Part shown: positions 31,699 through 36,180 of the stretch, one piece after another
How positions within the stretch are numbered: the first letter of the stretch is position 1
How the letters are laid out: every line of letters starts with the position of its first letter
Source of the DNA: Planctomycetota bacterium
Lineage (GTDB): Bacteria > Planctomycetota > UBA1135 > UBA2386
Direction of reading: 5' to 3'
Assembly: GCA_947501605.1 (NCBI GenBank)
Contig: CANMWZ010000042.1
Span: forward strand, 1 to 36,180
DNA length: 36,180 bases
Position numbers and translations under genes: made by a program
Notes under the pieces: generated by a model
Databases searched by the model: none
Told to the model about the DNA's origin: nothing
What the model saw: the letters and a program-made list of their open reading frames with translations, nothing else

Positions 31699-31844
31699 AG
31701 CGGCTGACTGGAACTTCAGAGGAACAGGTGGATGGGGACGATCGCCACTGTGCGCTGCCGTTTCGCGATTGGCAACGGCCGGCGGGATGCGGTCTCTGCC
31801 GCCGCACCTTTGTGCCGCCACGATCCCCGCTTTATGTAGCGATC

Positions 31845-32606
31845 ATGCAACAACGTCGTCACCGCTGGCTTGGCACTCTCCTGGTCGTGGTTGCGACCGC
31901 GATGGTGTCGTGCAGCAAGCCTGGCCCCGCTCCTGTGACGGTGTTTGCCGCCGCGTCGCTCGCCGCGCCGTTCAGCGCCCTTGCGACCGCGTTTGAGACC
32001 AGTCCTGGTGGCTGCCAAGTGCGACTGCACACCGATGGCTCGCAGAACCTGGTGCTGCAGCTCCGCGAAGGTGCAAGTGCGGACGTGTTTGCCGTTGCCG
32101 ACGAACGCACCATGCAGCGCGTCGTCGATCTCGGCCGGGTCTACGGTGCGCCGCGCGTGTTTGCGCGCAACAGCCTCGCCATCATGGTCGAGGTCGGCAA
32201 CCAGCATCACATCCAAGGCCTCGCCGACCTTGCGCGCTCGGACCTGAAGGTTGCGCTGTGTGGTCCGACCGTTCCCGTCGGCAACTATGCGCGCAAGGCG
32301 CTCGAGACGGCCGGCGTCACAGTGCATTCCGTTTCGGACGAGACCAGTGTGAAGGCGCTCGTCGGCAAAGTGCAGCTTGGCGAAGTCGACGCTGTCATCG
32401 CCTACCAAACCGATGTCCGCACAGGTCTGGAGGCGATTGCGATCCCGCCCGAGCACAACGTGATCGCGAGCTATCCGATCGCGGTGCTCACGGCGCGAAC
32501 CGTCGATGGCAACCACGATCGTGCGGCGGCAGAGGCCTTCGTCGCCTTCGTGCTCTCGCCAGCAGGGCGTGCGGTGCTGCAAGAACACGGCTTCGCGTTG
32601 CCATGA
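31845..32606 (+). CDS. modA: molybdate ABC transporter substrate-binding lipoprotein
   Basis: Lipobox MVSC, VFAAASL, GS..L..Q...GA.ADVF, FARNSL, VPVGNYA, GEVDA..AYQTD, YPIAVL, FVLS..G..VL..HGF. Confidence 0.93.
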   Translation: MQQRRHRWLGTLLVVVATAMVSCSKPGPAPVTVFAAASLAAPFSALATAFETSPGGCQVRLHTDGSQNLVLQLREGASADVFAVADERTMQRVVDLGRVYGAPRVFARNSLAIMVEVGNQHHIQGLADLARSDLKVALCGPTVPVGNYARKALETAGVTVHSVSDETSVKALVGKVQLGEVDAVIAYQTDVRTGLEAIAIPPEHNVIASYPIAVLTARTVDGNHDRAAAEAFVAFVLSPAGRAVLQEHGFALP

Positions 32607-32658: not shown

Positions 32659-33723
32659 ATGCGCATGACCGAGATCCGCCGCGACGACCTGCTCCGCCTG
32701 CTGGCTGCCATACCGGCGCCAGACGTCTACAACGAAGTCATCCTGCGGCCCGATGGCGACGTGCCGCTGGCGATGCTGCGGCCCGCCGGCCAACCGCCGC
32801 GCGCATTCGTGCTGCAGGACGGCGCTGCCGTCGAACTCTTGCCGGAGAACGATCCCGATCTCCCGGCCAGCAAGCTCTTCGGCAAGAAGTCGCGCATGCT
32901 GCGCGCGCTGCAACCGCTGCTGGGGCCGGTCGAAGAACCGAAGCTCGTGGCGTGGCGTCCGGGCAAGCGCGCCGTCGTGCGCGTGAAGCTCGGCGATGGC
33001 GCGCTGTTCGTGAAGTTCCTCGACCGGAAGACCTACCGGCGCGCGGCGGGGGTGTTCGAGGCGCTGCCGATGGCTGTGCCGCCGATGGAGTTCGCGCGCG
33101 CGACGCAGTTGCTGGGGGAGCTCTGTGCCTATGTGGCGCCAGCCGCGCCGGGCGTGTGCCTGCGGGAGATCCTCGCCAAGGGGGAGAGGCCGTCGTGGGC
33201 GCTGCTCGACGACGCGATCCGCGCCCTCGCAGCGACGCCGGTGCACGCGGGGATGCCGGTGGTGGACTTCGCGACGGCGAAAGACGCGGGCGTTCGCATG
33301 CTGCAGAAGGGCGCGGTGATGGTGCCGGAGCTAGCAGCGCGGGCGGAACGGCTGGCGGCGTTGGGTTCGCCTTCGAGTGTCAGACGGGGGTTCGTCCACG
33401 GGGACTTTCATGACCGACAGGTGTTCTTGACGCACGATCGTGTGCATCTGATCGACCTGGAGACGGTGGGGTCGGGCGACGCGAACTTCGATCTGATCAA
33501 CATGGCGGAGCAGGTTCGACTGCGGTCGCTGCAGCAGAACGGGAGCGACGATGGCACGGGGGCGGCGTTGCTGGAGCGGTTCGGGGTGGAGGAGGATGTG
33601 CGGTGGCGGTGGGGCGTGTGTGTGCGGGCGCGGCTGTGCGGGGTGTATGCGTTGCGGCCGCGGTGGGCGGAGTTGGTGCGGCGGTTGTTGGGGGAAGTGG
33701 ATGCGATGCTCGCGCGGGGGTGA
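32659..33723 (+). CDS. aminoglycoside phosphotransferase (APH)/kinase-like family protein
   Basis: WRPGKRAVVR, FVKF, Brenner-like FVHGDFHDRQV, LIDLE, FDLIN; start at 32659 or 32665. Confidence 0.85.
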   Translation: MRMTEIRRDDLLRLLAAIPAPDVYNEVILRPDGDVPLAMLRPAGQPPRAFVLQDGAAVELLPENDPDLPASKLFGKKSRMLRALQPLLGPVEEPKLVAWRPGKRAVVRVKLGDGALFVKFLDRKTYRRAAGVFEALPMAVPPMEFARATQLLGELCAYVAPAAPGVCLREILAKGERPSWALLDDAIRALAATPVHAGMPVVDFATAKDAGVRMLQKGAVMVPELAARAERLAALGSPSSVRRGFVHGDFHDRQVFLTHDRVHLIDLETVGSGDANFDLINMAEQVRLRSLQQNGSDDGTGAALLERFGVEEDVRWRWGVCVRARLCGVYALRPRWAELVRRLLGEVDAMLARG

Positions 33724-33725
33724 CG
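33497..33725 (+). repeat. direct repeat copy 1 (3' end of the phosphotransferase gene)
   Basis: Ungapped alignment to 35952-36180 with 8 mismatches in 229 nt. Confidence 0.97.
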
Positions 33726-33840
33726 AGGGTGCCGACCGAGGTCTCGTTCGTGGTGGGCCCGCGTCAGGAGCTCAGCGGGGCGCGGCAGGCTGAGATGGCA
33801 ATCTGCAAGTGCTCTGGCATTTGCACGGGGCCAACCAGTG

Positions 33841-35442
33841 TCACTTCCGCGGAAAGGTTATGACGAACTTAGCTGGCCCGGTCTCACACTCAAATGTCGC
33901 GTCGACCGTGCTTCGATCCCCGAGCATGGCCTTCACGTCGACTCGGCCCTTCGTGACCCAGCCTACGATCTTCTCGGGCTTAGCGCTTCGCAGGACATCG
34001 ACCATATTGCCGCTGGTGACCTGTAAGGCAGCATGCGCAGGGATGGTGCCGTCCTCATACTGAACGCGAAACTCCGCTAGGACGAGGTCCGCGACGAGTT
34101 GCACCTCTGCAACGACCGACTTACCGGCCTCGACGGTCGCTCGCTGAGGCTTGAGGTCCTTCAGCGACCCCTTGGGAAGAAAAGGCCGCAGGACGTACTC
34201 GCCAGGAGCAATCGAACTTGCCGCATCCCCGCTGCTGATCACTGCCGCCGTATCCCCATCCGTGCGGTTGACGAAGATCTCTACACCGCGGATCTCTTCG
34301 CCGGAGGGACCGCGCACGTGAACCTCGAGGTAAGTGCCTTGTTCCGCCCGATCCACCAATACGTCTTGCACGGCGAGCGAATCCAGAGATTGGAGAGAGA
34401 CTATTGCTTCGACGGGCTTGCCTGCGGCGCTGTCGAAGGACACAGGGATCTCGTGACTCCGCAGCCGATCGATCAAGGCGCGTGTACCGGCGAGCAGGAT
34501 CCGGCACTCGGCCCCAAACCTTGCACGCGCCGAATCGCGGGCCTCCACCGCCTCCTCTGCGTGCAATGGAGCAAGAGCCGCGGGGTAGTGCTTGATGCTC
34601 AGAGATGGGGGACTGCTGGGATTGAAGCGAACCACTGCCAGAACGATCCCTGCCACCACGACTCTCGAAGCGACTCTGTCTGGACCCCGGATCTCGACCG
34701 TTCCGCCTGACCCCATCTCCGCGATAGATGGGTCTAAGAAGTCGTGACGGTAGATGCCCGGCTGCAGACGGAAGGTCAGGCGGTTTCCTGATCCTGCTGC
34801 CGGCCACACTCCCGCGTTGGTGGGCTCGTTGTTCTCGGTCTTGATGGACCTCGTCTCGGCGCGTTGCATCTCTAGTGCCACACCGAGCGCCGGTGACCCG
34901 TTCATGTCGACTAGCTCCACTTCGTAGTCGAAGGCTGGAGCCATCCGGCAATCGTAGGTACCCCCCGTCGCCACCATCGCCGTGACGTCCAATGGGAAGT
35001 ACCCGGGGGCGTGGATGCAGAGGCGTTTGGGAGTGGTTCTCGGGCGCTCCGCAACCACGAGCGAGCCTTCTTGGAAATCGTGAAGTACGGAAGTGCGTTG
35101 AATGCCCTCCGTGGTCCATTCGCCGAGCGCGGCCCCTGGCACTGTGCTGTCCCCGGAATCCCGGATGGGACGTACAACGAGCCATTCTCCTGTTGCTGCA
35201 GGAGCGGTTCGTGCCTCGGCGGTCGCAGCGGTTGGTGTAACGATTGGCCGGTCTTGACCCACTGCAACGCGAGCTTCGACCTGCGAGTCGGCCTCATGCA
35301 CCGGCGCCGGAACGGAACCACTACGTGACAGCAGGGCTACGCCCAGCGCAATCACGGTTAGAAGACCGGCGACAACGTGCCTGGTGTGCTTCCGGGCTGA
35401 TGGCCGCCCAGTGGAAATCATTGGATCTGGTAGCACTTGCAT
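33841..35442 (-). CDS. membrane-anchored hypothetical protein with repeated beta-sandwich (carboxypeptidase-regulatory-like) modules
   Basis: Long ORF in a lower-GC region, N-terminal TM anchor, Ala/Pro linker, recurring APGY/PGxY and VxxxDG.P motifs. Confidence 0.8.
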   Translation of the reverse strand: MQVLPDPMISTGRPSARKHTRHVVAGLLTVIALGVALLSRSGSVPAPVHEADSQVEARVAVGQDRPIVTPTAATAEARTAPAATGEWLVVRPIRDSGDSTVPGAALGEWTTEGIQRTSVLHDFQEGSLVVAERPRTTPKRLCIHAPGYFPLDVTAMVATGGTYDCRMAPAFDYEVELVDMNGSPALGVALEMQRAETRSIKTENNEPTNAGVWPAAGSGNRLTFRLQPGIYRHDFLDPSIAEMGSGGTVEIRGPDRVASRVVVAGIVLAVVRFNPSSPPSLSIKHYPAALAPLHAEEAVEARDSARARFGAECRILLAGTRALIDRLRSHEIPVSFDSAAGKPVEAIVSLQSLDSLAVQDVLVDRAEQGTYLEVHVRGPSGEEIRGVEIFVNRTDGDTAAVISSGDAASSIAPGEYVLRPFLPKGSLKDLKPQRATVEAGKSVVAEVQLVADLVLAEFRVQYEDGTIPAHAALQVTSGNMVDVLRSAKPEKIVGWVTKGRVDVKAMLGDRSTVDATFECETGPAKFVITFPRK

Positions 35443-35493
35443 GGATCCGAGTTGTAGTCAAAGAAAAGAGAGTCCGTCTTGTCAAGGCACCAG

Positions 35494-35799
35494 CTAGTGC
35501 AGCAGACATCCTCGCATGTCAAGTGCGAGAGCGGTGACGAGAGTTAAAGCAATCCGGAGCATTAGCCCTGCGATCAAGGCGACAGCAGTCACGGTTTCTA
35601 GAGCGACCACTCCGTACAGAACAAAGTCCTGATCGCCACTGATGTTACCCGTCGAGGCCTTCGCCGCCGCGAGAAGAGCCAGGGCAATAGTGATCCGGGA
35701 TGAAAGCGCTCGCTGGACGTAGAAGAGACGCAAGGGGACCCAGTTAGGGAATCCCCCGAGCTTCTCGCCTTGGGTCGCCTCTTCCCGTGTCTCAGCCAT
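35494..35799 (-). CDS. small hydrophobic membrane protein, possibly a truncated DoxX/MauE-like gene
   Basis: Hydrophobic segments IALALLAAAK and VVALETVTAVALIAG; ends abruptly; start uncertain. Confidence 0.4.
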   Translation of the reverse strand: MAETREEATQGEKLGGFPNWVPLRLFYVQRALSSRITIALALLAAAKASTGNISGDQDFVLYGVVALETVTAVALIAGLMLRIALTLVTALALDMRGCLLH

Positions 35800-35951
35800 G
35801 CCGAGTAGGTTAGCGACGCCCCCCCTCATGTGAGCCTTGTCCCAAGAAAAGTCTCGACTTTGGGAGGGCTGCAGCTCGGCCTCTGGATAGCCCGCACTTC
35901 CCAATAGCCTAGCCGCAGGACGCACCGGGGCAGGGTCGCGCAGAGGTGACG

Positions 35952-36180
35952 TCAACATGGCGGAGCAGGTTCGGCTGCGGTCGCTGCAGCAGAACGGGAG
36001 CGACGATGGCACGGGGGCGGCGTTGTTGGAGCGGTTCGGGGTGGAGGAGGATGTGCGGTGGCGGTGGGGCGTGTGTGTGCGGGCGCGGCTGTGCGGGGTG
36101 TATGCGTTGCGGCCGCGGTGGGCGGAGTTGGTGCAGCGGTTGTTGTCTGAAGTGGACGGGATGCTCGCGCGGGGGTGACG
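35952..36180 (+). repeat. direct repeat copy 2: orphan 3' fragment of the phosphotransferase gene (73 aa ORF 35957-36178)
   Basis: 221/229 identical to 33497-33725; runs to the window edge, so its true right end is unknown. Confidence 0.97.

Follow-up and report, generated by a model that had tools for sequence, protein, structure and literature searches.

How did an intact gene come to be followed by a second copy of its own 3' end, with a stretch of foreign-looking DNA between the two? The question is raised by contig CANMWZ010000042.1 (C42) of a freshwater Planctomycetota bacterium (GCA_947501605.1; source assembly G000, 4.65 Mb, 91% complete). The window analysed here is this entire contig, 36,180 nt in length. 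The end of its APH-family phosphotransferase gene, positions 33497-33725, is repeated at 35952-36180. The repeat is 229 nt long, gap-free and 96.5% identical, with a spacing of 2455 nt. The copies differ at eight positions (33519 A/G, 33571 C/T, 33680 G/A, 33691-33693 GGG/TCT, 33702 T/C and 33704 C/G), which change three codons synonymously and alter the residue in three others (R/Q, G/S and A/G). The length, spacing and substitutions had been described in an earlier reading of the sequence alone (the sequence-only reading), and all were confirmed. The 4.65-Mb assembly holds only these two copies, with no third, and C42 ends within copy 2. In public contigs the true repeat reaches the equivalent of 33732, and strains with G at 33496 start one base sooner, which gives a repeat of approximately 236-237 nt. 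The orphan-tail protein has three alleles, called on 7, 19 and 2 public contigs. The 7-mer GGTGACG (33719-33725) spans the stop codon of copy 1 and recurs immediately 5' of copy 2 (35945-35951); no counterpart of it was found at the other duplicated-end loci of the genome. Our analysis indicates that the locus is most likely a variant of a published class of insertion and not a new gene-capture machine. The features are collected in Table 1.

Table 1. Features of the duplicated gene end in the window, and the other orphan gene ends of the same genome
Feature	Coordinates	Strand	Description	Basis
APH-family phosphotransferase gene	32665..33723	+	kinase-like; intact target; 352 aa	Pfam PF01636, E 6e-8; orthologues 68-70% identical in four congener genomes
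Repeat copy 1	33497..33732	+	final 75 codons, stop, 9 nt past stop	sequence comparison; extension to 33732 from run contigs
Candidate Rho utilization site	33533..33730	-	C-rich, G-poor, unstructured tract, 110 nt behind cargo stop	composition and minimum free energy (MFE)
Cargo gene 1, predicted surface protein	33841..35442	-	526-533 aa; hydrophobic N-terminal helix, then CarboxypepD_reg-like repeats	feature score, Pfam match and hydropathy (see text)
Cargo gene 2, MauE/DoxX-like membrane protein	35494..35829	-	truncated, 111 aa; 155 aa in other strains	MauE match of P0004; CGCFG motif
Likely deletion joint	35519..35520		~556 extra nt in other strains	joint in X3, X6; record lengths in X3, X7
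Repeat copy 2	35952..36180	+	orphan gene tail; open 73-aa frame 35957-36178, cut by contig end	sequence comparison
argS orphan end			223 nt	
DUF5666 orphan end			130 nt	
tex orphan end			223+63 nt, internal deletion in orphan	
Ser/Thr kinase orphan end (C53)			59 nt	
132-aa gene orphan end (C53)			124 nt, 85%	

The sequence-only reading had named a strain-chimeric assembly as a threat to its proposal. Seven public lake runs from six studies, one of them possibly the source sample, were compared as contigs, and all counts of runs refer to the contigs listed. The left junction is bridged in five of the seven runs (X1, X3, X4, X8 and X9) and the right junction in six (X1, X3, X4, X6, X7 and X8). 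A single 2121-nt contig of X4 spans the greater part of the cargo and continues into copy 2. The gene, the orphan and both cargo proteins sit on equally sized public contigs of 57-90 kb, which we took to be the same contigs, and the longest identical stretch between the copies (108 nt) is shorter than the assembly overlap (149 nt). Several strains do coexist in the runs, and the contig stops at a strain branch point, but the bridging of both junctions in independent studies leaves a chimeric origin scarcely credible, and the arrangement is not an assembly artefact.

The same runs bear on two further proposals, that repeated events build a tandem array at the gene end and that the site receives variable cargo. 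Neither was borne out. Among the loose ends listed there were two left contexts, two right contexts, one cargo and at most two copies in all seven runs, and the cargo protein is 99-100% identical across 11 aligned members of its cluster. A common sequence lies 3' of the repeat in five of the seven runs (X1, X6, X7, X8 and X9). One contig of X9 leads from the sequence upstream of the repeat through a copy-2-type end and then forks to both right contexts, with no joint of cargo to repeat among the records listed; it may represent an empty allele, a shortened allele or a filtered record. X1 also gives a hint of an empty site. Short loose ends within the repeat in X1 and X6 (~33-nt matches, low depth) were assigned to other organisms and set aside. 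The right flank of copy 2 was not found in the same genome, in GTDB or in viral contigs, and the metagenome scan gave no conspecific locus. Contig C41 was considered as the continuation of C42 but was not supported as such: it carries the ancestral neighbour at C41:1364, but behind two other genes and without a copy of the tail.

Related genomes have a single gene end. In four congener genomes and one metagenome contig, a deoxyhypusine-synthase-like gene follows after 95-107 nt, and five more distant loci likewise lack the duplication (10 other aph loci inspected in all). The protein at the single-end congener loci is ~70% identical to the target and has a different neighbour gene; the deoxyhypusine-synthase-like neighbour is relocated in the source genome. 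The upstream side is also altered: a modA-like gene (31728-32606) precedes the phosphotransferase gene, a position taken in congeners by genes for a 204-aa protein and a membrane protein. C-terminal alleles of the phosphotransferase are mosaic within the species. Full-length and orphan forms each occur in copy-1 and copy-2 types, an orphan of copy-1 type exists (P0027), and strains differ at the left junction of the cargo. Therefore, the locus recombines. The R/Q, G/S and A/G differences occur in full-length and orphan alleles alike, so the old and the new end are not assignable. The idea that incoming DNA recombined into the gene thus stands as an integrase-free insertion that left the gene intact, duplicated a coding 3' end and is absent from five congener loci, but the alleles segregate, and copy 2 cannot be identified as the old end pushed downstream.

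The anatomy is not confined to the phosphotransferase gene. Self-comparison of the genome gave 43 same-contig direct repeats, from which tandem paralogues, intragenic repeats and multi-copy element ends were removed. Six orphan 3' ends were found, each downstream of its own intact gene, in six unrelated genes, or approximately one scar per megabase; the bracketing of integrase-free cargo by a gene end, noticed at first in the window, thus recurs at five other genes. A protein-level scan recovered three of the six, and one further, decayed case duplicates the 5' part of a gene. At all six, the similarity between the copies breaks off at about -3 to +12 nt relative to the stop codon, and the left edge lies 59 to ~480 nt upstream. 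The start-to-start distance of the six units is 2356-3752 nt. A vehicle of fixed size was rejected: five units measure 2356-2756 nt, but the sixth measures 3752, the fuller allele of the window ~3.0 kb, and units in relatives 1249 and 4906. The genome holds eight tyrosine-recombinase matches and three IS91-transposase matches (on C10, C55 and C85) and zero serine-recombinase matches, and none of these families was found on the contigs of the six loci. No motif common to the junctions was found by inspection. At the argS locus, the apt gene that follows argS in congeners comes one gene after the orphan. On C53, 24 nt separate the orphans of two opposite genes, the Ser/Thr kinase gene and a convergent 132-aa gene, and a cargo lies on either side of the pair (L043:7764-14247); the crossed tails look like a tandem join of two alleles of one variable spot.

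Among relatives, the same anatomy is present in G004 (ugd, 43 nt) and G061 (46 nt), and contiguous DNA of relatives gave one case in 1.59 Mb. In G004 (L136:6339-7630), the ugd-like end is duplicated around a foreign, membrane-anchored gene on the opposite strand, and the contig again ends within the orphan. Contig breaks may often cause loci of this kind to be missed. Reuse of the same gene ends was not seen. The argS end gave two matches in only 2 of 77 genomes, those in the other genome being on separate contigs; the second argS end in G010 matches the neighbourhood of G063 and may reflect bin mixing, and the 93-nt repeat that G061 has behind argS proved to be a multi-copy element. For the DUF5666 end there was no other same-contig pair among 45 and none in 29 short loci, and for tex the one flagged case among 80 diverse loci was a paralogue pair. 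Repeats on C52, C55, C39 and part of C66 were excluded from the six as multi-copy element ends. This element, 130-370 nt long, brackets accessory cassettes in direct orientation near IS91-transposase fragments (L039:890-6578, L040, L041:5607-7517 and L045; C52, C55, C66 and C39), and its copies are possibly non-autonomous rolling-circle ends. Separately, a 22.6-kb island with multiheme-cytochrome-like genes on C21 lies between an RNA pseudouridine synthase gene and a copy, with a deletion, of the 5' part of that gene (L046:4354-4773 and L047:6964-7144), with no integrase match on that contig. The FG-GAP cargo at tex (L038:6600-8180) has a 69% identical paralogue at C38:13289-15013.

The cargo of the window is 2.2 kb long, ~2.8 kb in fuller alleles, with a GC content of 0.616 compared with 0.659 in the upstream part of the window. 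Both of its genes are on the minus strand, and their third-position GC contents (0.68 and 0.65) do not exceed the 0.04th percentile of the genome. The description of the cargo as lower in GC, opposite in strand and devoid of integrase or transposase was correct; neither the large cargo protein nor any other cargo protein scanned matched a recombinase family. Searches of the locus for tRNA genes, Rfam families, plasmids and meaningful viral matches found none. Cargo gene 1 has a language-model feature score in Atlas of 0.93 with 188 shared features to PF13620 clusters of Planctomycetota, a weak Pfam match (E 0.089) and a hydropathy maximum at residue 23. Its sequence search gave nothing beyond its own 99% cluster among 7999 scored candidates, and the single-sequence fold had a predicted local distance difference test (pLDDT) score of 35. 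For cargo gene 2, P0004 matches MauE with E 8e-4, below the cut-off. The CGCFG motif is common to a MauE/DoxX protein on C52, and the 155-aa full-length form has six database members; pairwise BLASTP of the truncated protein against the C52 protein matched nothing. Cargo gene 2 is only 111 aa long because the source strain lacks, at 35519/35520, ~556 nt that X3, X6 and X7 carry; a deletion in the source strain is the likely cause. A comparable cassette on C52 consists of a Cys-rich small protein, a CarboxypepD-like protein and a MauE/DoxX protein. CarboxypepD-like genes are present in three of the six cargos. No gene-end duplication was found near MauE genes in 20 loci (379 kb).

The number of targets, the lack of a recombinase, the homology that ends at the stop codon and the mosaic alleles point to recombination by the host, with homology on one side only. 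We lean, with slightly better than even confidence, toward insertion of the cassette by this route, the tail acting as passive homology and not as a dedicated attachment site. A fragment of a relative's DNA, carrying gene end and cargo, would pair inside the gene while its far end joins illegitimately at 33497. The donor would be conspecific or nearly so, and uptake may be by natural transformation, as ComEC and DprA are encoded in the genome. Alternatively, the fragment might circularise and enter by one crossover. Either route would yield the order gene, cargo, tail, and the data cannot separate them. Later exchange between strains or copies would have reshuffled the eight differences. A right edge close to the stop codon and a variable left edge are as expected if homology ends where the neighbours of donor and recipient diverge, and the two opposite-gene orphans on C53 are hard to obtain from one site-specific element. 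Joining of this kind, homology-facilitated illegitimate recombination, is said to have been treated by de Vries and Wackernagel in 2002 and by Prudhomme et al. in 2002. Several points weigh against this model. Most control genomes also encode ComEC and DprA, and the two genes do not demonstrate competence. No empty-site allele of the species and no donor was seen, and the assembly does not include the right-hand flank of copy 2. A repeat that ends at the stop codon is equally what a site-specific element of the e14 type carries. The adjacency of the C53 kinase and small gene was not found in the short loci of eight relatives, and the two-alleles reading of that locus is tentative. The model also leaves unexplained how the first donor acquired the cassette.

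The locus could instead be the scar of a site-specific integrative element with a replacement 3' end, of the type of e14 or phage 21 at icd, whose integrase was later lost or acted in trans. According to the portion of the report available, e14 is flanked by icd and the C-terminal pseudogene icdC, with few substitutions (PMC13626634), and the repeats here end at the stop codon in a genome with eight tyrosine-recombinase matches. Deletions such as the 556 nt in the window and the internal one in the tex orphan also occur in the units of this genome. However, to explain six target genes, six integrases would have to be invoked, each lost without trace, and the scanned cargo proteins hold no remnant. 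With no junction motif shared by inspection, no reuse of the argS and DUF5666 ends in ~80 family genomes, and no match in viral contigs or plasmids, we regard this origin as unlikely. An origin in the repair of a fork or break, with foreign DNA joined illegitimately across sister chromatids at its two ends, is similarly improbable. The copies would then have been born identical and diverged by strain exchange, in keeping with differences that segregate as alleles in the species and with the copy-1-type orphan P0027; the presence of GGTGACG at the stop region of copy 1 and before copy 2, and cargo codon use far from native, also favour it. But the right edge would be expected anywhere in the spacer, yet it lies at the stop codon in six of six loci, no such short repeat is present at the other loci, and Ku was not found in the 91%-complete genome.

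An active accretion site, where cassettes would pile up in tandem and a copy of the tail would close each one, might hide more cargo in the unassembled flank past copy 2, and the synonymous skew described below is older than the duplication and hints at a long-lived variable spot. Such an array is very unlikely given that no third left context or second cargo was present among the listed loose ends of seven runs, that five of the seven share the same right flank and that the cargo protein is nearly invariant. ISCR elements, which mobilise neighbouring DNA as a circle that re-enters by homology, suggest a further route, in which an IS91-family rolling-circle element moved gene end and cargo together. 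IS91-transposase matches are present on C10, C55 and C85, and on C52 multi-copy end-like repeats bracket a similar cassette of a peptide, CarboxypepD and MauE genes. However, the window cargo has no DNA similarity elsewhere in the genome, the C52-type repeats included, and we give this route very little weight.

The recoded end of the phosphotransferase gene is the most worthwhile lead of the locus. Its last 100 codons have the lowest share of C at four-fold sites of 2288 genes (0.07 compared with 0.45 +/- 0.09). The depletion forms a gradient toward the cargo, whereas congener orthologues are flat. In comparisons with five congeners, C-to-G differences (15-22) far outnumber G-to-C differences (2-3) over the last 150 codons, and the first 150 are near balance. 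This imbalance implies that the shift predates the duplication. On the minus strand, the resulting tract has a C:G ratio of 3.2-3.3 in three 78-nt windows, and the MFE of the repeat is -35 kcal/mol compared with -82.6 +/- 9.4 kcal/mol for 150 control gene ends, all 150 of which are more structured. No intrinsic terminator was found on the minus strand behind the cargo stop. The sequence features of a Rho utilization site, that is C-rich, G-poor, unstructured and untranslated RNA behind a stop, are present, and two matches to the Rho RNA-binding domain occur in the genome (C7:116696 and C3:249793). Rho suppresses antisense transcription and silences acquired DNA, as stated in the part of the source available (PMC12360218), which makes it plausible that the tract is a selected Rho terminator, judging from composition and predicted folding. 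Alternatively, the C depletion could be a mutational footprint of repeated exchange; this is weakened by the observation that T is not raised at four-fold sites, though it is raised at two-fold sites.

Is such recoding general? Of the 42 most C-depleted gene ends, 17 face DNA of the least-native decile, compared with 5 of the 42 most C-rich (p 1e-7), and 5' ends show no effect. Against generality, the average skew next to foreign DNA is small (p 0.05), four relatives gave 8 of 33 where ~3 were expected, orientation does not predict the skew, and only aph and argS are skewed among five duplicated ends tested. Convergent neighbours as the sole cause of the skew were rejected, four of the eight most C-depleted ends being convergent against a background of 32%. 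As a separate observation, the G-rich strand is more often than not oriented toward foreign-looking DNA, at 108 of 173 skew peaks (Wilcoxon p 5e-5), and at several sites this holds on both flanks (for example C36:701-3150, C64:7801-9650, C4:147751-150450 and C6:152801-154150). It is conceivable, though doubtful, that gene ends at long-lived insertion spots are recoded as antisense Rho terminators, so that the tail would be homology anchor and terminator in one, cassettes would travel self-insulated, and strand-specific 3' C depletion would mark the spots genome-wide. No description linking C-depleted gene ends to insertion spots or terminators was found in listings of literature outside subscription sources. 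If the depletion is indeed a selected terminator or an exchange footprint, it would provide a marker for insertion spots that can be read from a single genome.

The locus broadens the class of insertion with long target duplication, described for restriction-modification genes, to include ordinary accessory cargo, here in an uncultured planctomycete. This implies a general host-recombination route that adds genes behind essential and non-essential genes without breaking them. Integrase-based island finders are blind to such islets.

Several known systems share parts of this anatomy. Kirchberger et al. 2017, in the portion of the article available (PMC5361080), invoke homology-facilitated illegitimate recombination for orphan arrays. 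There, and on our preferred reading here too, a homologous anchor and an illegitimate joint add genes behind a conserved gene and strand an orphan piece, but those arrays hold orphans of variable toxin tips and immunity genes, whereas the window has a near-identical non-toxin tail in two copies. The tail of a phosphotransferase gene, present only twice, also lacks the hallmark of polymorphic-toxin arrays (Rhs, contact-dependent inhibition (CDI) and the type VI secretion system (T6SS)), which have variable toxin tips, immunity genes and more than one orphan. In e14, as far as the accessible text goes (PMC13626634), an intact gene at one end and a slightly diverged C-terminal copy at the other resemble our locus, but e14, a prophage of 15 kb, has a site-specific recombination system of its own, and the unit here, 2.5-3 kb long, has none. 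No integrase was found on C42 or at the five other loci, and no target reuse in 10 other aph loci or at the argS and DUF5666 ends. A further comparison is with unconventional circularizable structures, in which, as here, recombinase-free cargo lies between long direct repeats and could in principle loop out as a circle. Unlike those, our locus has a coding gene end as its repeat and carries no resistance gene.

Insertion with long target duplication is reportedly the subject of work by Nobusato et al. in 2000. In the accessible part of Furuta, Abe and Kobayashi 2010 (PMC2853133), it is an insert of <20 kb between imperfect direct repeats of >30 bp (to ~420 bp) with no other mobile genes; the repeats often span the start or stop so that the gene survives, and the species are mostly competent. 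The premise of the sequence-only reading, that incoming DNA leaves duplicated 3' ends, is thus already published, stop-spanning repeats included, whereas its extension to an array with variable cargo is not supported here. The cargo of the window is CarboxypepD-like and MauE-like and not restriction-modification, so the role proposed there for DNA cleavage by the element itself is inapplicable, and the host belongs to Planctomycetota, with the single end seen only in congeners at ~70% identity. In the features by which the accessible text defines the class, the likeness is close: a duplication of 229-237 nt, above 30 bp, encloses an insert well under 20 kb (2.2 kb here, ~2.8 kb in fuller alleles), and the 2.2-kb form matches no recombinase family.

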